Shown here: positions 2,669-43,653 of the stretch, piece after piece
Numbering within the stretch: position 1 is the first letter of the stretch
How the letters are laid out: the number at the start of each line of letters is the position of its first letter
Virus record (IMG/VR): IMGVR_UViG_2654587540_000005
Strand: one strand, 5' to 3'
DNA from: a virus
Taxonomy: Duplodnaviria; Heunggongvirae; Uroviricota; Caudoviricetes
DNA length: 44,661 nucleotides
The notes under the pieces: model-generated
What the model was told of the DNA's origin: nothing
Seen by the model: only the letters and a program-made list of their open reading frames with translations
Databases searched by the model: none
Translations under genes and position numbers: made by a program

Positions 2669-3472
2669 TTAAGCGGCGTCGGTGAATTCAAATAAAAAAC
2701 CGGCTTGCGCCGGCTCTCTCATCTTTCTGTCTACCCATGCTGATATCGATGGCTGGTGCACCTTTTCAATAGCAGCGCGAAGTACAGCTGTACGTGCCAG
2801 TTTGTCGGTAATCTCAGGAAATCGCTTCTCAGTTTTTGGTACGTTAACGGCAACGTTAGTAGAATCTGCGCTGGCGAATGGATACATCCCAAGCACCCTG
2901 ACATCTAGCATCCTCAATCCATGGAGCTTAACCGGGGATTTTCTATTGATGTATAGCTCAGTAAACACCTCATCCATGCGCTGCTCCCACCACTTAGATC
3001 GTATATGTCTGTGCGGTCCGCAACATCCTATTGCGACCCACTCATAACGCTCAGAAAGCCTCACAAGTCGATCAATCGATTCATCAGAATGCCATACAGG
3101 TACGTCCTTGGACGCAAGCCAGTGTGGAACTAATGCTAACTGCTCATCGTTTTCTTCCTCCGTTCCTTCAATGACATCAGGTATAAGAAACCACTCAATT
3201 CGGCTGAACCATTTCCCGACAAAGTCATAAAACCTCTCACTTCGCTTCCCCCAGTCCACCGTTTTCTTTTTCTTTTTGGCTTTATCCCATGCTGAAAACG
3301 CGCCGTTATCAAGTCTGATATCACATGGGATCATTGCCACTTTCTTCATCTGCTCCGGTCTTGCAAATGAAATGAACGCTCCACCATCACGGTACAGAGC
3401 CTTTATGAGCATATCTGTAGGTGCATCTTTATCACCCCAGATAGGACTTCCGTGAAAGTGGACTGTCATCAT
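2669..3472 (-). CDS. TGT-superfamily protein, putative DpdA-like DNA 7-deazaguanine transglycosylase
   Basis: 267 aa ORF starting ATGATG at 3472. Motifs RLDNGAF (cf. TGT DSGGFQ), AIGCCG, LHGLRML and FASADST are consistent with a tRNA-guanine transglycosylase-like barrel. Its start overlaps the stop of the upstream membrane-protein gene. Confidence 0.5.
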   Translation of the reverse strand: MMTVHFHGSPIWGDKDAPTDMLIKALYRDGGAFISFARPEQMKKVAMIPCDIRLDNGAFSAWDKAKKKKKTVDWGKRSERFYDFVGKWFSRIEWFLIPDVIEGTEEENDEQLALVPHWLASKDVPVWHSDESIDRLVRLSERYEWVAIGCCGPHRHIRSKWWEQRMDEVFTELYINRKSPVKLHGLRMLDVRVLGMYPFASADSTNVAVNVPKTEKRFPEITDKLARTAVLRAAIEKVHQPSISAWVDRKMREPAQAGFLFEFTDAA

Positions 3473-3930
3473 CTCTTCCTTAAAATTAATGACCAGATAA
3501 AACCTCCGCCAACCTTAGCAATGAACTGGCCGGCAATGATTCCTGGCATAAGAGAGCCGAATGCGATAAGCGGGAACGATATAGAATCAATAACTGAAGC
3601 GGTTATGTTTGAGGCATTTGCCTTAACTGACCAAGGCTTGCGAATCAACAGTTGATAGACGCTTCCGTCTCCCAGTGATGCGAGAACGAAGGAGGCTGAG
3701 GAGGCAATGGCGATCATGCCGCCTGCAGGATTAATGATGTAACTTAAAACTCCTGACAGTACAGCAAGCCCAGTAACTTTAATAAACCCGATTCGCTCAT
3801 GGAGTACGTCACGAAGAATGAAATCAAGGCCAATCAGAGCGAAAGAATTGACGATAGACCACCATGGTCCGAACAGAAACACAAGGTAGTTAGCTGCGCA
3901 GATTGCTAATACATATACAAGTGCAGCCAT
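3469..3930 (-). CDS. Polytopic membrane protein, putative YhhQ/VUT-family queuosine-precursor transporter (short form)
   Basis: Hydrophobic ORF; preferred start is ATG at 3930 with a GAGGG RBS, whereas the ORF-track start at 3987 is a GTG. Several predicted TM helices and YhhQ-like segments by recollection. Translationally coupled to the DpdA-like gene. Confidence 0.4.
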   Translation of the reverse strand: MAALVYVLAICAANYLVFLFGPWWSIVNSFALIGLDFILRDVLHERIGFIKVTGLAVLSGVLSYIINPAGGMIAIASSASFVLASLGDGSVYQLLIRKPWSVKANASNITASVIDSISFPLIAFGSLMPGIIAGQFIAKVGGGFIWSLILRKR

Positions 3931-4083
3931 AGTTGACCCTCTGACATGTGAATGAGCGAAGAGATAGCCGCCCATGCAATAAGGCACGCTATGGCGACCA
4001 GAACTGGGTTGTAATGCATGGTGACTCCGGATAAAGAAAAACCCGCTGGGTGCGGGTTTGTTATGCGTCGAATGGGTTAGGCG

Positions 4084-4687: not shown

Positions 4688-5294
4688 TTTTAGCCTCCTG
4701 CTGCGGCGCTGCTGGTGCGGCGGCGAGCATTTTCGAGTAGCAATGCACTGTATTCAGCCAGAACCCAACCACCGATTGTCCAGCACGCAACATATCTTTT
4801 GTTGGGTCAATCGGAACAAGTTTCCATCCATTCGGAATCACCGGAGAGTTACCAGCCACCATTTTGTTGGCATCATCAGAATGGTCTACCATTTCGAGGT
4901 GTTGCTCGGTATGGTTTCCTCCCTGAAGCATGGCGGCGCGGCAGGCATTCCAGCCTCTCACCTCTGCAATAGCGGCAACAGCATCGACCGCGTACATTTT
5001 AAGAGGGTTGGGCATTGGTTTTTCTTCAGGTACTACTGGCACTGGAGGGGCGGCGTATACTTCAATTGTCCCATTATCAATAGGCCATTCTCCATCCTTG
5101 ATGTAGTCACTTGTGCCATCGACCTGCTGTTCTGCAATGTGGAAAGCACCTATTGGTTTTGCTTCCAGCGATGCCAGAGCAATTCGTGCCAGTTCTTCCG
5201 CTTCTTCTGCTGGCAGTACAACGTTGCTGCCAGGTCCGTATGTTTCGCGCCACTGCTTGATTGTCAGCAGTCGCTCTTTGGTAATAGTGATCAT
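4680..5294 (-). CDS. Hypothetical early-left protein
   Basis: 204 aa ORF with ATG at 5294 and an AAGGAA RBS. No recognised domain. Confidence 0.55.
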   Translation of the reverse strand: MITITKERLLTIKQWRETYGPGSNVVLPAEEAEELARIALASLEAKPIGAFHIAEQQVDGTSDYIKDGEWPIDNGTIEVYAAPPVPVVPEEKPMPNPLKMYAVDAVAAIAEVRGWNACRAAMLQGGNHTEQHLEMVDHSDDANKMVAGNSPVIPNGWKLVPIDPTKDMLRAGQSVVGFWLNTVHCYSKMLAAAPAAPQQEAKNV

Positions 5295-9178: not shown

Positions 9179-9296
9179 AACGCCTCCAGTTGTTTCTTTG
9201 CTGCTCTGATTAATTGTTTAACTCGGCGTGATAATTCAGATTCGTGCGGGTAGAAAGCGGACATGACGCCGCTACCCGCTAAAATATATTCATTCA

Positions 9297-9809
9297 TTAT
9301 TTGCTCCTGTAGAATTCGCCGTGATGCTTTCTGGCAAAGTCGCAGTAAGCTTTTTTGGCATCTTCTAATTCATTAAAGTACCCTAGATGTTTTTTCTTCC
9401 CGTTTAATTTCCCATAGGCAGCCCACTTTCTACTTTCCTTCTTCCATGTGACTCCTTTGCAACCTGATTTGTTGAGGGTATTTATTTTACTATTCATTGA
9501 ATTCTGTGAGTAAGTTGCAAGCCTCAGATTGCAAATTCTGTTATCTGTCTTTATGCCATTTATATGGTCGATAATACCTTCAGGCTCAACACCGAAAGTG
9601 ATAATCCATGCAAGTCTATGTGCAGCATAGTGTCTTCCGTTAATGAAAATCCTTAAGTAGCCGCTTGTTGTTATTGTTCCGGCAGTTCCACCTATCTTCC
9701 TTGCTCCATAAGATTTTAGCCATGTGAACTCACCAGAAATAGGGTTATATTTGACAACATTATTAATCTCACTTAGGGAAATTAATTCAAGAATCTTTAT
9801 AAGTGCCAT
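9297..9809 (-). CDS. HNH endonuclease with AP2-type DNA-binding domain
   Basis: HNH motif HINGIKTDNRICNLRL and AP2-like segment SGCKGVTWKKESRKWAAYGK. AT-rich; ATG at 9809. Confidence 0.8.
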   Translation of the reverse strand: MALIKILELISLSEINNVVKYNPISGEFTWLKSYGARKIGGTAGTITTSGYLRIFINGRHYAAHRLAWIITFGVEPEGIIDHINGIKTDNRICNLRLATYSQNSMNSKINTLNKSGCKGVTWKKESRKWAAYGKLNGKKKHLGYFNELEDAKKAYCDFARKHHGEFYRSK

Positions 9810-9893
9810 TTTATATCCTATCAACTGCGTTCATTAATCAGCGTTTACGCTCATGAATAAACACCTCTCGTGAAGCGTTATTGGTATGCATAT

Positions 9894-9917
9894 AAAAAGG
9901 CCCTCACACTGGAGGGC
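9894..9917 (-). terminator. Rho-independent terminator for leftward transcription (tL-like)
   Basis: Minus-strand hairpin GCCCTCCAGTGTGAGGGC followed by a U-run, sited between the 83-aa ORF and the HNH gene. Confidence 0.5.
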
Positions 9918-10595: not shown

Positions 10596-10859
10596 TTACC
10601 TCGCTGTAACCTGCTTACTTGTACGATGACCAGCTGCGAAAAGCGCAACTTCTGGCAGGCAGACAGTACCACCTTCAACTTCCTTCTGAAGCGTTCCGGC
10701 AAGCGAAATGGCTTTTGTTACGCGTGTACTGCATGTGCTATTTGCTACCCGGCGCGAAAGAGAAGCGTCCTGCATTGCCTGCTCACGTTGAGCCTGTCTG
10801 CGTGCTCTGCGGCGATTTCTGGCGTTATCGTCAGCCAGATATGTAATGACTACTGTCAT
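10596..10859 (-). CDS. N: N-type transcription antitermination protein (P22 gp24-like)
   Basis: 87 aa with an arginine-rich motif (NARNRRRARRQAQREQ) near the N-terminus and a C-terminus (VTKAISLAGT.QKEVEGG...AAGHR.SKQ.TAR) matching P22 gp24. Sits immediately downstream of nutL. Confidence 0.7.
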   Translation of the reverse strand: MTVVITYLADDNARNRRRARRQAQREQAMQDASLSRRVANSTCSTRVTKAISLAGTLQKEVEGGTVCLPEVALFAAGHRTSKQVTAR

Positions 10860-18976: not shown

Positions 18977-19491
18977 GCATAAGAGAACTAAACCTCACCA
19001 AAGAGCAGCACGAGTGGCTGAATGGCTGGCTTGAACTGTGGGGCGCATGGGTTTATTCAGGTCGTCTGGAAAAGCGCATGAGCAGCGTAATAGCGAAGTT
19101 CATGGAGAGCGTAGAGCCGGGAAGAATTATGACAAGGCCAATGTGTAATGATGATGATGGAATGTTGATTTCTCAGGTCGTCGATTCCGTCATGTACATT
19201 GACAAGAAAGCCTTTGGCATCCTCCTCAGCTACTACGCTCATGGTTCATCTAAGCGAGCAATTGCATCCTACTATCACGCGACTGCAAAGCCACGCAAGA
19301 TGTGTGGACGTGGTGGCGAGGGATGGAGAAAACCTTCACTGGCAACCTGTAGAAACGAAATTGACGACATCCTGAAAGCGTCGTTATTTGTTTTGTACCA
19401 GCCAATGCAAAATGCTTTCAAAATGCGTAAACGTGTTGAGAAAGTTAAGCATGTTGCTGTTAAAAGCCTTGACATGCAATTATCCATTTAG
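18973..19491 (+). CDS. Q: Late-gene antiterminator Q
   Basis: 172 aa in the Q position, immediately upstream of a strong promoter and terminator pair; basic, cysteine-containing protein. Family assignment rests on gene order. Confidence 0.65.
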   Translation: MSIRELNLTKEQHEWLNGWLELWGAWVYSGRLEKRMSSVIAKFMESVEPGRIMTRPMCNDDDGMLISQVVDSVMYIDKKAFGILLSYYAHGSSKRAIASYYHATAKPRKMCGRGGEGWRKPSLATCRNEIDDILKASLFVLYQPMQNAFKMRKRVEKVKHVAVKSLDMQLSI

Positions 19492-19500
19492 CCATAATAT
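19469..19500 (+). promoter_or_regulatory. Late promoter pR'
   Basis: TTGACA (19469..19474), about 18-bp spacer, then CATAAT (19493..19498), overlapping the 3' end of Q. Confidence 0.5.
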
Positions 19501-19538
19501 TCACATATGCTGCTGCTTTTGCATTCAGCAACCATCAC

Positions 19539-19565
19539 AAGCCCACCTCCTGTGGGCTTTTTTGC
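19539..19565 (+). terminator. tR' rho-independent terminator
   Basis: Hairpin AAGCCCAC-CTCC-TGTGGGCTT followed by TTTTT, about 45 nt downstream of pR'. Confidence 0.6.
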
Positions 19566-19685
19566 ATTCGCGTGCAATCAAAACAAGAGTCTTAGTGATA
19601 TGGGCCTGAGATATGGTGGTGGAAACATCGCTCCGCTCTTGGCTGTCATATCTACGCGAACAGGCTCTATCCCTAAGGTAAAGCG

Positions 19686-20198
19686 ATGAAAGAAATAAAA
19701 TTAACGCCAGAAATGGTGCTTTCTGTTGTTGATTACAATCCATCATCAGGCGACTTTCACTGGAGATGGAGGCGGGGAAGAGAGAGGACCACTTTGACAT
19801 GGAACTCTCGTTTTGCTTTCAAGAAATGCTCATCAATAAATTCTGATGGGTATTTAATGATTATGATTAATGGTAAAGCATACCCTGCTCACAGACTGGC
19901 ATGGTTGATTGTTTATGGCACCATGCCCGATGGTTTTATTGATCACATCAACAGGGTAAGAACAGATAACCGGATATCAAATCTTCGTCTTGTCACTCAT
20001 TCCGAAAATATGCAGAACAGGAAAATTCAGAAGAATAATAAATCTGGATACCGTGGCGTGTCTTGGGATGCTAAGTACGGGAAATGGAGAGCAAGAATTA
20101 ATGCGTCTGGAAAGTGTATTAACCTTGGATACCATGATACTGCCGAACTTGCCGCTGCGGCTTTTGAGGCCGCCAGAATGAAATATCATACCGTTTAA
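19686..20198 (+). CDS. HNH endonuclease with AP2-type domain (second copy)
   Basis: HNH motif HINRVRTDNRISNLRL and AP2-like segment SGYRGVSWDAKYGKWRARI. Paralogous to the 9297..9809 gene; AT-rich. Confidence 0.8.
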   Translation: MKEIKLTPEMVLSVVDYNPSSGDFHWRWRRGRERTTLTWNSRFAFKKCSSINSDGYLMIMINGKAYPAHRLAWLIVYGTMPDGFIDHINRVRTDNRISNLRLVTHSENMQNRKIQKNNKSGYRGVSWDAKYGKWRARINASGKCINLGYHDTAELAAAAFEAARMKYHTV

Positions 20199-20653
20199 AG
20201 ATGTAAGCTGCCGTTAGTGACTCTTAAGTTGCAACGGTGGCTTTTTTTATTTGCACAACAGGTAAGAGCATTGAGTCGATAATCGTGAAGAGTCGGCGCG
20301 CCTGGTTAGCCAGTGCTCTTTCCGTTGTGCTGAATTAAGCGAATACCGGAAGCAGAACCGAATCACCAAATGCGTACAGGCGTCATCGCCGCCCAGCAAT
20401 AGCACAACCCCAACTGAGCCGTAGCCTCTGGCTATCCTGAATTCATCAGTGATAGTTACGCTGCGGCATTCTACGCATGACCTTCGTGAAAGCGGGGGGG
20501 CAAGAGGCTGCGCTAACAACCTCCTGCCGTTTTGCCCGTGCATATCGGTCACGAACAAATCTGATTACTAAACACAGTAGCCTGGATTTGTTCTATCAGT
20601 AACCGACCTTATTCCTAATTAAATAGAGCAAATCCCCTTATTGGGGGTAAGAC

Positions 20654-20977
20654 ATGAAGATGCCAGAAAAACATGACCTGTTAGCCGCCATTCTCGCGGC
20701 AAAGGAACAAGGCATCGGGGCAATCCTTGCGTTTGCAATGGCGTACCTTCGCGGCAGATATAATGGCGGTGCGTTTACAAAAACAGTAATCGACGCAACG
20801 ATGTGCGCCATTATCGCCTGGTTCATTCGTGACCTTCTCGACTTCGCCGGACTAAGTAGCAATCTCGCTTATATAACGAGCGTGTTCATCGGCTACATCG
20901 GTACTGACTCGATTGGTTCGCTTATCAAACGCTTCGCTGCTAAAAAAGCCGGAGTAGAAGATGGTGGAAATCAATAA
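20654..20977 (+). CDS. S: Class I holin S (dual-start S107/S105)
   Basis: [39 protein letters not shown]... is essentially lambda S, with the Met1-Lys2-Met3 dual-start motif. Confidence 0.9.
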
Positions 20978-21437
20978 TCAACGTAAGGCGTTCCTCGATA
21001 TGCTGGCGTGGTCAGAGGGAACTGATAACGGACGTCAGAAAACCAGAAATCATGGTTATGACGTCATTGTTGGCGGAGAGCTATTCACTGATTACTCCGA
21101 TCACCCTCGCAAACTTGTCACGCTAAACCACAAACTCAAATCAACAGCAGCCGGACGTTACCAGCTTCTTTCCCGTTGGTGGGATGCCTATCGTAAGCAG
21201 CTTGGCCTGAAAGACTTCTCTCCCAAAAGCCAGGACGCTGTGGCACTGCAACAGATTAAAGAGCGTGGCGCTTTACCGATGATTGATAGCGGTGATATCC
21301 GTCAGGCAATCGACCGTTGCAGCAATATCTGGGCTTCACTGCCGGGGGCTGGTTACGGTCAGTTCGAGCATAAGGTTGACAGCCTGATTGCAAAATTCAA
21401 AGAAGCTGGCGGAACGGTCAGAGAGATTGAGGTATGA
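20961..21437 (+). CDS. R: Endolysin (lambda R-type lytic transglycosylase)
   Basis: [49 protein letters not shown]... is near-identical to lambda R. Confidence 0.9.
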
Positions 21438-21871
21438 GCAGAGTCACCGCGATTATCTCCGCTCTGATTATCTGCATCATCGTCTGCCTGTCATGGGCTG
21501 TTAATCATTACCGTGATAACGCCATCGCCTACAAAGAGCAGCGCGATAAGGCCACATCCACAATCGCTGACATGCAGAAGCGTCAACGTGATGTAGCAGA
21601 ACTTGACGCCAGATACACAAAGGAGCTTGCTGATGCTAACGCGACTATCGAAAGCCTCCGTGCTGATGTTTCTGCTGGTCGTAAGCGCCTGCAAGTCGCC
21701 GCCACCTGTGCAAAGCCAACGACCGGAGCCAGCAGCATGGGCGATGGAGAAAGCCCAAGACTTACAGCAGATGCTGAACTCAATTATTACCGTCTCAGAA
21801 GTGGAATCGACAGGATAACCTCGCAGGTTAACTACCTGCAGGAGTACATCAGGACGCAATGCCTTCGATGA
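21434..21871 (+). CDS. Rz: Rz i-spanin
   Basis: N-terminal TM segment ([18 protein letters not shown]) followed by a coiled coil; lambda Rz-like. Confidence 0.85.
21633..21818 (+). CDS. Rz1: Rz1 o-spanin lipoprotein, embedded in Rz in the +1 frame
   Basis: ATG at 21633 with an AAGGAG RBS; signal peptide with lipobox (LLVVSAC) and a proline-rich mature region. Confidence 0.65.
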
Positions 21872-22044: not shown

Positions 22045-22069
22045 AGCCTCGCATTTGCGGGGCTTTTTT
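22045..22069 (+). terminator. Rho-independent terminator downstream of the lysis cassette
   Basis: 8-bp stem (AGCCTCGC/GCGGGGCT) followed by TTTTT. Confidence 0.5.
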
Positions 22070-22286
22070 ACATCTGCAGTAAACCGCGCATCGCAGCGCG
22101 TAACAATCCCGAGTCTTTCAGAAAGCTGAGCCTGAGAATTGCCGTATATGGTGGCGACCATCTCGGGGACGGCTTTTCTGTGCGAACAGGCTCATCTTTC
22201 TAAAAGGTAAACGCTATGAACAACTTTGTTGAAATTACCTCAAGAAAGACATCTTAATCAAGCAACCACTCCACAGGGTCATAATT

Positions 22287-23493: not shown

Positions 23494-23516
23494 AATGACA
23501 ACTAAGTGAGATGAAT

Positions 23517-24005
23517 ATGGCAGCACCAAAGGGCAACCGATTTTGGGAGGCCCGCAGTAGTCATGGGCGAAATCCTAAATTCGAATCGCCTGAGGCGCTG
23601 TGGGCTGCTTGTTGTGAATACTTCGAGTGGGCTGATGATAACCCGCTATGGGAGGGTAAGGTATTTTCATATCAGGGAGAAATAATTAAGGCTAATGTCC
23701 CTAAGATGCGAGCCATGACTATTTCAGGATTGTGTACCTTCCTTGATATCACCAGGCAAACATGGGGAACCTTCCGGTCAATGGAAGGTTTTTCTGACGT
23801 CACATCACGAGCGGAAGACATCATCTACGACCAGAAATTCTCTGGCGCAGCCGCTGACCTTCTCAACGCTAACATCATCGCCCGTGATTTGGGCCTCAAA
23901 GAGCAGTCGCAAGTTGAAGACGTGACACCTGATAAGGGAGATCGCGATAAGCGACGCTCTCGTATCAAGGAGCTATTCAACCGTGGAACTGGACGCGATT
24001 CTTGA
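23517..24005 (+). CDS. Terminase small subunit (P22 gp3-like)
   Basis: [38 protein letters not shown]... matches the P22 gp3 type. ATG at 23517 has the better RBS spacing than 23511. Confidence 0.8.
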
Positions 24006-38829: not shown

Positions 38830-38834
38830 AGTTG

Positions 38835-38897
38835 AAGCCCCAACTGCGGGAACAGTCAGGGCTTCGGTATCAACAAATCGGATTAGGAAATATTGAC
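38835..38897 (-). ncRNA. sar: Putative sar antisense RNA (arc-ant intercistronic region)
   Basis: By analogy with P22 immI. A minus-strand hairpin (GAAGCCC...GGGCTTC) followed by a U-rich tract sits opposite the ant RBS; the ends are not defined. Confidence 0.35.
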
Positions 38898-43578: not shown

Positions 43579-43653
43579 TGGTGTCCCCTGCAGGAATCGA
43601 ACCTGCAATTAGCCCTTAGGAGGGGCTCGTTATATCCATTTAACTAAGAGGAC
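43579..43653 (-). tRNA. argW: tRNA-Arg (anticodon CCU)
   Basis: 75-nt minus-strand cloverleaf: 7-bp acceptor stem (GTCCTCT/AGGGGAC), anticodon stem AGCCC/GGGCT with loop CUCCUAA giving anticodon CCU, T-arm GGTTCGATTCC, 3' ACCA. Confidence 0.9.

Follow-up and report, generated by a model that had tools for sequence, protein, structure and literature searches.

Two HNN-AP2 endonuclease genes of a P22-like prophage are probable homing-type selfish genes, each dedicated to its own intergenic site in lambdoid phages

This study concerns two related genes, HNH1 and HNH2, carried on a 44,661-nucleotide (nt) stretch of viral DNA (IMG/VR record IMGVR_UViG_2654587540_000005; Caudoviricetes) that is analysed here at its full length and is called the window. 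The window is a P22-like lambdoid prophage. Our analysis indicates that HNH1 and HNH2 are probably free-standing selfish genes of the homing endonuclease type, belonging to the HNN-AP2 family and representing two clades, each of which occupies a single intergenic site in lambdoid phages. As genes they are ordinary in kind, and the annotation "HNH endonuclease" is already attached to HNH2 in the phage HK629 and Escherichia coli E2348/69 records. What is added here is the base-level anatomy of the two cassettes, the division into two site-dedicated clades and a conserved structured leader RNA upstream of HNH2, the last of which is the most novel. Coordinates of all features are collected in Table 1.

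The original prediction for this DNA, which was made without database searches, described two AT-rich genes of about 170 amino acids (aa) with a shared architecture that are roughly half-identical by eye, and these descriptions are borne out. Both open reading frames (ORFs) are found where they were placed, and both match the full profile of Pfam HNH_3 (56.8 bits for HNH1 and 66.1 bits for HNH2) as well as PHROG 99, "HNH endonuclease". HNH1 and HNH2 align by BLASTP with 45% identity across 155 aa (E = 9e-42), and the GC contents of 37.6% (HNH1) and 41.1% (HNH2) make the genes AT-richer than their flanks at 44-49% and the whole window at 46.9%. The Pfam AP2 profile scores 35.1 bits with HNH2 and 29.2 bits with HNH1, the latter below the cut-off of 33.3. 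An alternative upstream start of HNH1, a TTG at 9824, would give a protein of 175 aa. Across 61 aligned relatives, HNH1 and HNH2 included, residues D86, H87, N89, N99, L100, R101 and N111 are invariant, which agrees with the beta-beta-alpha-metal motif (catalytic His, metal-binding Asp/Asn) of I-HmuI-like His-Me finger endonucleases. Both ORFs are intact with the length that is commonest in their own protein clusters, and both genes are free-standing, being intergenic with junctions mapped to the base and with no intron or intein.

Structure modelling and comparison with Foldseek were applied to HNH2, for which the AlphaFold model has a mean predicted local distance difference test score (pLDDT) of 92.4. 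The top match of this model in PDB is I-HmuI (1u3e; probability 1.00, 107 aligned columns, E = 2.6e-3), followed by the AP2 domains 1gcc, 7et4 and 7wq5 (AtERF1, TEM1 and WRI1), and it superimposes on the AP2 domains of 1gcc and 7et4 with a root-mean-square deviation of 1.2-1.6 Å. I-HmuI is also the best nuclease match by sequence for both HNH1 and HNH2, with the motif aligned. The N-terminus of each protein is accordingly predicted to be an I-HmuI-like nuclease and the C-terminus an AP2 DNA-binding domain. I-HmuI is an intron-encoded HNH nicking endonuclease of phage SPO1 (PDB 1U3E), and its motif DH...N...N and the preceding beta-hairpin region align with the window proteins. However, I-HmuI sits in a group I intron, its DNA-binding tail is not an AP2 domain and identity is only ~20%.

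Each gene is contained in a precise insert, which some phages have and others, homologous in the remainder, lack. Breakpoints were placed by comparison with HK75, HK629, HK106, Sf6 and LZYWN_4. A comparison of the flanks with relatives that lack the inserts, which the original prediction had suggested, located the junctions to the base, and these are identical in many phage backgrounds. Each cassette also brings sequence for the function of its neighbour, namely the cIII start region in cassette 1 and a hexamer plus a terminator in cassette 2.

Table 1. Features of the window discussed in the text, in order of position
Feature	Position	Strand	Remarks
Integrase-sized ORF, 420 aa	415..1677		left end; assigned by size
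cIII, 44 aa	9163..9297	minus	
Cassette 1, 579-bp insert	9280..9858	minus	replaces 49 bp of the empty allele (HK106)
HNH1, HNH_3 + AP2 (HNN-AP2) endonuclease gene, 170 aa	9297..9809	minus	
Intrinsic terminator of the pL operon (tL-type)	9892..9917	minus	directly upstream of cassette 1, in the conserved left flank
N-like antiterminator	10596..10859	minus	pL arm
Q, 172 aa	18973..19491	plus	end of pR arm
Late promoter pR', phage-21 type (TTGACA, 18 nt, CATAAT)	19469..19498	plus	overlaps end of Q
Cassette 2, 704-bp insert	19499..20202	plus	replaces TAGAAG (6 bp) of the empty allele
-10-like hexamer TATGCT (TATGCTGC)	19506..19511	plus	7 nt after the promoter -10
Terminator B, tR'-like intrinsic terminator of the insert	19539..19563	plus	8-bp stem + T-run, from scan
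Conserved structured leader RNA, ~105 nt	19562..19667	plus	before HNH2
Leader P1	19562-19566 with 19573-19577		
Leader pseudoknot	19567-19572 with 19655-19660		P1 loop with distal segment
Leader P2	19602-19608 with 19661-19667		
Leader P3	19613-19619 with 19643-19649		
Leader P4	19621-19623 with 19632-19634		
HNH2 Shine-Dalgarno; start codon	19675-19678; ATG 19686		
HNH2, HNH_3 + AP2 endonuclease gene, 170 aa	19686..20198	plus	first gene of the Q-dependent late transcript
Ancestral phage-21-type leader + tR' (terminator A)	20203..20248	plus	now downstream of HNH2, without a promoter of its own
Lambda-type S, R, Rz	20654..21871		downstream of HNH2
Second, diverged leader copy (80 bits)	22081..22223	plus	after Rz and terminator 22045..22069
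Terminase small subunit	23511..24005		terminase large subunit, portal, coat and tailspike further right

The breakpoints of cassette 2 were mapped against HK75, Sf6 and the LZYWN_4 prophage. Homology to insert-free phages ends exactly at 19498, directly after the -10 hexamer of pR', a promoter that matches the consensus at 11 of 12 positions. The order Q (PF06530), pR', -10-like hexamer and terminator is that of a Q21-type late cassette, and the Sf6 record describes this promoter as nearly identical to the phage 21 late promoter and labels the next ~50 nt as the qut site and tR'. In contrast to a Q21-type cassette, the initial transcribed region and terminator next to this near-identical promoter belong to another allele, one that moves together with the HNH gene, while the classical allele is kept downstream (TAAGCT at 20204-20209, tR' stem at 20207-20241 and T-run at 20242-20248). 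The insert thus lies between pR' and the initial transcribed region that natively follows this promoter. The original prediction that the late gene follows tR' stands in so far as a terminator was found there by scan (19539..19559 plus T-run), but this terminator belongs to the insert and is not the ancestral tR'. It was right that the gene rides on the late transcript and precedes the late leader, as HNH2 is the first gene of the Q-dependent transcript and the ancestral leader lies downstream of it.

The replacement leader has TATGCT at the 7-nt spacing at which the native phage-21-type leader has TAAGCT (TAAGCTGC), and this hexamer, which is conserved across different Q alleles, is a putative sigma-dependent pause element. 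We keep this assignment as putative because a text search of the literature did not find a published sequence or position of the phage-21 pause element. The segment 3' of the hexamer (GCTGCTTTTGCATTCAGCA, 19512..19535) is likewise conserved across Q alleles and could fold into a short UGCUG...CAGCA hairpin. Q21 loads on a template that has only positions -40 to -1 of pR'21 together with the pause element at its native position (bioRxiv 10.1101/651190), and from this the replacement leader would be expected to keep the late switch working. This expectation is supported by HK629, an isolated phage that carries cassette 2, and by the PhiR12 phages, which retain the leader with a truncated gene. 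The insertion, with its substitute inside the late switch, is new and lets one ask, as in a natural experiment, what a Q21-type qut site can do without.

We considered whether the leader with terminator B (leader B) is an independent common allele of the late leader and rejected this, as it occurs with the HNH cassette. Cassette-2 sequence matches 41 complete E. coli genomes, one of which holds the first 255 nt and another only the first 65 nt; because the remaining 39 hold the whole cassette, leader B is treated as part of cassette 2. Other Q alleles that share leader B also carry an HNH gene of the same clade. A lambdoid moron (own promoter, gene, own terminator) would have a sigma-70 promoter directly upstream of its gene; a consensus sigma-70 scan between terminator B and the HNH2 ATG found no promoter, weak or activator-dependent promoters being beyond such a scan. 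The HK629 record annotates a "putative late promoter pR'" between terminator B and the gene (L001, 2252..2257), and we rejected this candidate as it has no match to a promoter hexamer. The annotated position falls within the structured leader, whereas the phage-21-type promoter is found at the end of Q, which it overlaps, so the placement is a probable annotation error in the public record. Additionally, a phage-21-type leader with tR' occurs without an adjacent Q21-type promoter in E. coli O157:H7 genomes (hit H318 and similar; also H89-H94). Homology in these genomes begins exactly at the cassette 2 junction, with other upstream sequence joined to it in O157:H7.

All ten distinct contexts that contain the exact HNH2 protein show the order Q (PF06530), HNH2, holin, although nin genes, holin classes and terminases vary among them. 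This bears on an alternative raised by the original prediction, according to which the late copy could assist terminase. The HNH protein gp74 has such a role in HK97-like phages. Like gp74, HNH2 is an HNH protein encoded in a lambdoid late region and is made from the late transcript. Unlike gp74, it is not adjacent to terminase, portal or the cos end: it lies 3.3 kb upstream of the terminase small subunit gene, with S, R, Rz and a second leader copy between. Nor is it linked to one packaging module, as the same HNH2 occurs with P22-like TerS/TerL, in Lambdavirus HK629, with a gpA-type terminase and with Terminase_2 plus Terminase_3, and a 62%-identical relative sits with an Sf6-type terminase. 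Other phages have the same late genes without HNH2, and the architecture is HNH_3 plus AP2, not a small stand-alone HNH. Considering position, variety of terminases and architecture, a role as terminase helper is not supported and we find it scarcely credible.

At the early site, cassette 1 comprises a 5' leader of 49 nt, the HNH1 gene and 18 nt from the start of cIII, such that the first six codons of cIII are cassette sequence (MNEYIL, versus MMHFQL in the empty allele of HK106). The HNH1 stop codon overlaps the cIII start (TAATG), and the cassette supplies both this ATG and the cIII Shine-Dalgarno sequence (AGGAG, at proper distance), which lies within the last HNH1 codons. The 3' end of HNH1 that contains AGGAG and TAATG (TACAGGAGCAAWTAATG) is conserved at the DNA level in relatives of the HNH1 clade. 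The tL-like terminator that the original prediction placed upstream of the gene was located by scan at 9917..9900 plus T-run, and the HK106 record has a rho-independent terminator at the corresponding position. From this terminator to the HNH1 ATG a consensus sigma-70 scan found no promoter, with the same limit for weak or activator-dependent ones. The order HNH1, cIII, kil is found in nine of nine contexts with the exact HNH1 protein, around which the upstream gene (an 83-aa ORF, Ral or Nmad5) and the recombination module (Erf or Rad52) are variable.

Since each gene abuts a regulatory site (qut or tR' for HNH2, the cIII translation start for HNH1) and AP2 is a DNA-binding domain, one could read both proteins as transcription regulators of the late leader or of cIII in which the nuclease is vestigial. 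We consider this very unlikely, as the nuclease motif is invariant and most related phages function without the genes.

Occupancy of the two sites was counted in 5426 complete E. coli genomes. Cassette 2 is present in 39 of these at ≥98.7% identity and a contiguous empty late site in 363, while cassette 1 is present in eight at ≥99.3% identity and its flanks match in 2221 genomes that have empty or other alleles. No genome in this set has both cassettes. Insert-free alleles, by which the original prediction proposed to judge the genes, are thus abundant: the late site is empty in HK75 and Sf6 as well as in the 363 genomes, and the early site in HK106 and many other genomes. The LZYWN_4 prophage has cassette 1 filled and the late site empty. 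Among isolated phages cassette 2 is found in HK629, whereas cassette 1 is found in none (best tblastn match 53%). At 90% identity the HNH2 protein cluster has 265 member sequences from E. coli and Salmonella, with the commonest variants each on hundreds of contigs, and the HNH1 cluster has 48 from E. coli and E. fergusonii.

Several copies are decayed, as expected for selfish genes. In the PhiR12 phages (PhiR12_1; L005, ~3049..3303) and NCTC9112 (H310), only the leader and 68 nt from the start of HNH2 are left, fused to unrelated DNA. In WCHEC115106 (L008, 2501..2565) HNH2 is deleted between two T-runs, which fuses leader B and terminator B to the sequence after terminator A. In WP8-S18-CRE-02 HNH1 is truncated with an IS1 element beside the truncated end. 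Two chimeric proteins, P0049 and P0052, are 99% identical to half of HNH2. In one, HNH_3 is joined to a PF11650 domain, and in the other the AP2 half is attached to Phage_CII; both resemble remnants left by deletion or fusion.

Relatives of the two proteins keep to the same two sites. HNH2 relatives with 62-71% identity, from E. coli, metagenomic contigs and Pantoea anthophila, lie directly after a PF06530 Q gene and before lysis genes. HNH1 relatives with 66, 64 and 53% identity, one of them from Atlantibacter, also overlap the cIII start. In a neighbour-joining tree HNH1 and HNH2 fall in separate clades, and two clades that are each site-faithful down to ~53-62% identity fit the target-site fidelity predicted for homing endonuclease lineages. 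Recent duplication of one gene was rejected given these separate clades, DNA similarity between the cassettes of only 145 bp at 65% (the HNH core) and the lack of any complete E. coli genome with both; the site-dedicated clades rule out duplication within this genome. The original prediction called the two genes "paralogous"; they are not recent paralogues, as each belongs to a clade tied to its own site. The two empty sites were also compared for a shared junction motif, and this was dismissed, as the only similarity is ATTCA at both left junctions, which we regard as chance.

Other HNH genes were seen in lambdoid phages. In the E. coli prophages L030 and L032 (1776..3513) HNH-AP2 genes flank Q on both sides, a 173-aa gene overlapping the Q start and a 170-aa HNH2 relative following Q. 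Further HNH_3 genes occur in lambdoid early regions (L027, 727..1251 and 4747..5274; L010, 11995..12462; L007, 20861..21277; L248, 1129..1599; L037, 959..1549), at spots that look fixed, namely between ybcO and rusA, between Rad52 and ssb, between recT and gp157, and upstream of HNH1, erf and ninG. Several site-specific HNH lineages seem to populate lambdoid phages.

The sequence in front of HNH2 is of interest in its own right, as the ~190 nt from pR' to the HNH2 start are far better conserved across the clade than the protein. A 16-mer from these ~190 nt retrieved 102 IMG/VR stretches. Five or six of them are chance matches, and most carry one and the same element of ~125 nt, which sits behind an intrinsic terminator and ahead of a gene's start codon. 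The cargo behind this element comprises HNH-AP2, KilA-N, KilA-N + P63C, ANT, Rha + ORF11CD3 and T5orf172/MUG113 proteins, an HNH_3 protein with a homing-endonuclease zinc loop and a TerB-like protein; HNH1 is without such a leader. With a plain MAFFT alignment of 19 non-redundant copies, RNAalifold gives five helices with 26 pairs, in which 97.6% of cells are paired and compensatory changes occur in eight pairs versus ≤2 with slid partners. A covariance model recovered further diverged copies, and over 45 distinct sequences pairing is found in 95.8% of cells and changes on both sides in 20 of the 26 pairs (126 cells), a number reached by none of 500 shuffles and compared with ≤22 cells in slid controls. 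The 45-sequence alignment is fitted to the model and favours the structure; the MAFFT-only result is the unbiased check.

The pseudoknot is formed by the loop of the first hairpin, which is complementary to a segment just 5' of the last helix strand. It occurs in seven versions (UUCGCG/CGCGAA, UUCUCG/CGAGAA, UCGCA/UGCGA, UCGUAC/GUACGA, CGCUC/GAGCG, CCGCA/UGCGG and UCACAC/GUGUGA), and at least five contiguous Watson-Crick pairs are possible in 11 of 13 cognate combinations versus 13% of non-cognate ones. Frequent G-U pairs fit an RNA that is read from the cargo strand. Because single-sequence folding is unremarkable (z = -1.4), support for the leader comes from covariation and not from energy. 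A search of Rfam 15 (window 19300..20700, L039 8800..9200 and the whole window) gave no match to the leader at gathering score; weak matches (E ≤ 10) were far below that score and on adjacent terminator hairpins, with one spurious hit of a microRNA model in L039. Literature searches with the conserved strings of the leader and with the concept returned nothing relevant. As in the pseudoknot operator of T4 gene 32 and riboswitch-like leaders, a compact pseudoknotted RNA lies directly upstream of a start codon. However, the leader has no sequence or Rfam relationship to these elements, occurs in front of unrelated cargo genes and in every case stands behind a terminator.

Scans with gapped motif patterns gave metagenomic and non-enterobacterial matches most of which are chance and failed the covariance model, and confirmed copies come from E. 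coli, Salmonella, Serratia, Pantoea, Pectobacterium, Symbiopectobacterium and Leminorella. Of the 63 copies in the alignment, 21 stand behind Q and 20 behind lysis genes as recognised by the query set, 21 have no query-set match upstream and one has too little upstream sequence. Six of the copies with no upstream match were examined, and the genes before them are small tail-cluster genes in three cases, an Rz-like spanin in one and genes without assigned function in two. No copy was seen in an early region among aligned copies with readable context, and wherever context is readable the leader is a late-operon element.

The window itself has a second leader copy, after Rz, which is followed only by a 13-codon ORF (MNNFVEITSRKTS). 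Its cargo looks lost or replaced, since in L020 and L126 a T5orf172/MUG113 gene stands behind a leader copy that is closely similar and has the identical terminator upstream. In HK75 (L002) the annotated start of HK75_56 (3953) is inside a leader element (3888..4035), the ATG according to the model being ~80 nt further on, and this too is a probable annotation error in a public record.

These features suggest that the leader may exert cis-acting control of translation, mRNA stability or processing of late accessory cargo. For example, it could act as a sensor in the manner of a riboswitch, serve as an operator through which a phage or host protein controls translation, or undergo processing or self-cleavage, and in the last case selfish cargo would be uncoupled from the essential late transcript. 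Opinion can be evenly divided on the wider proposal that the leader is an undescribed class of pseudoknotted cis-acting RNA that marks mobile cassettes of terminator, leader and cargo in late operons of temperate Enterobacterales phages, the cargo being either homing-endonuclease-type nucleases or DNA-binding proteins of the KilA-N, ANT and Rha types. A strongly covarying pseudoknotted leader shared with many unrelated accessory genes is new, and if it is a regulatory RNA it provides a handle on how phages control selfish and antirepressor-type cargo in late operons.

The original prediction that free-standing homing endonuclease genes have invaded two transcription units gains support from the empty alleles, constant junctions, invariant catalytic residues and fold match. 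We propose that expression would be confined to lytic growth, with HNH1 behind tL-type terminators requiring N and HNH2 behind a tR'-type terminator requiring Q and translated from the conserved pseudoknotted 5' leader RNA. During co-infection, or induction beside a related prophage, the enzyme would nick or cut the insert-free allele near the insertion point, and recombinational repair from the cassette-bearing genome would then copy the cassette in. The cassette-bearing allele would be protected by a site that is split (late) or rewritten (the 5' end of cIII), and the cassettes appear built so that cIII and the late switch suffer little.

A number of points weigh against this proposal. The same pattern of presence and absence could arise by ordinary homologous recombination between conserved flanks of mosaic slots. 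In other phages the space from tL to cIII is taken by different cargo, for example DUF2528 or superinfection-exclusion genes, and the -10/+1 junction of pR' is a general mosaic boundary even without an HNH gene. The structured leader also precedes non-nuclease cargo (KilA-N, ANT and Rha), and such cassettes therefore spread without a nuclease of their own. The main rival explanation is accordingly that the cassettes are passive, moron-like mosaic cargo shuffled by general or Red/Erf-type recombination at conserved boundaries, with the nuclease irrelevant or inactive. Both insertion sites being general mosaic boundaries and the presence of terminator-leader units with non-nuclease cargo at several late-operon sites speak for this. 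However, the catalytic residues are invariant in the 61 relatives, both ORFs are intact at the commonest cluster length, the two clades keep their own sites down to 53-62% protein identity and copies are 98.7-100% identical across different phage backgrounds. The invariant residues, intact ORFs and kept sites point to selection acting on the protein and on the tie between protein and site, and we consider passive carriage unlikely.

A different possibility is that the enzymes are weapons between phages, acting in superinfection exclusion or interference competition to damage cassette-free relatives, with copying of the gene as a by-product. The enzymes would be aimed at a regulatory site that no phage-21-type relative can afford to lose, the empty site is present at high identity in 363 genomes, and the gene lies between tandem terminators. 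Leakage through terminator B from a constitutive pR' could supply a little HNH2 in lysogens, with terminator A still protecting the lysis genes. This explanation is compatible with homing and overlaps with it mechanistically, such that sequence alone cannot separate the two, and we think it improbable. Homing remains our preferred explanation, and filled (HK629) and empty (HK75, HK106 and Sf6) alleles in cultivable phages make this a tractable temperate-phage system for studying either homing or interference competition.

Free-standing homing endonucleases of phage T4, such as SegG and MobE, are encoded intergenically, are expressed with the phage programme and spread by gene conversion of flanks. 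The window genes are likewise intergenic with expression predicted to be tied to the phage programme, and gene conversion of flanks is expected for them. In contrast, some T4 enzymes are of other nuclease families (GIY-YIG for Seg), T4-type hosts of these genes are lytic phages and their homing is demonstrated, whereas that of the window genes is inferred from sequence. Closer in kind are the free-standing HNN-AP2 endonuclease genes that Magnani reportedly described in 2004 and that are said to occur in Xp10, Xop411, OP1, T5 and T1-like phages. These have the same domain order and the boxes HRLAW, DH, DNR, NLR and EN, lack zinc-binding cysteine dyads and are sporadic with degenerate remnants, as are the genes of the window. 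HNN-AP2 genes have been treated as free-standing homing endonuclease genes in Xp10-like phages (Lee 2007, PMC2248197), and an atypical class with a divergent HNH domain plus AP2 is described for ICP1 (PMC10448857). Insertion of the Xanthomonas phage genes was judged to be sequence-independent (PMC2248197), whereas each clade of the window genes keeps one exact site. The window cassettes also rebuild a neighbouring function, unlike the Xanthomonas phage genes. What is new is that there are at least two HNN-AP2 clades in lambdoid phages, each tied to one site.

Two observations concern the right part of the prophage. The Rfam model of sar RNA, the antisense RNA of the P22 immI region, matches at 38830..38896 on the minus strand (71.6 bits), indicating an immunity I module of the ant/arc/mnt type near the tail genes. 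A transfer RNA gene for arginine (anticodon CCT; ARAGORN, also Rfam) lies at 43579..43653 on the minus strand near the right end, and together with the integrase-sized ORF at the left end it is possibly related to the attachment site.

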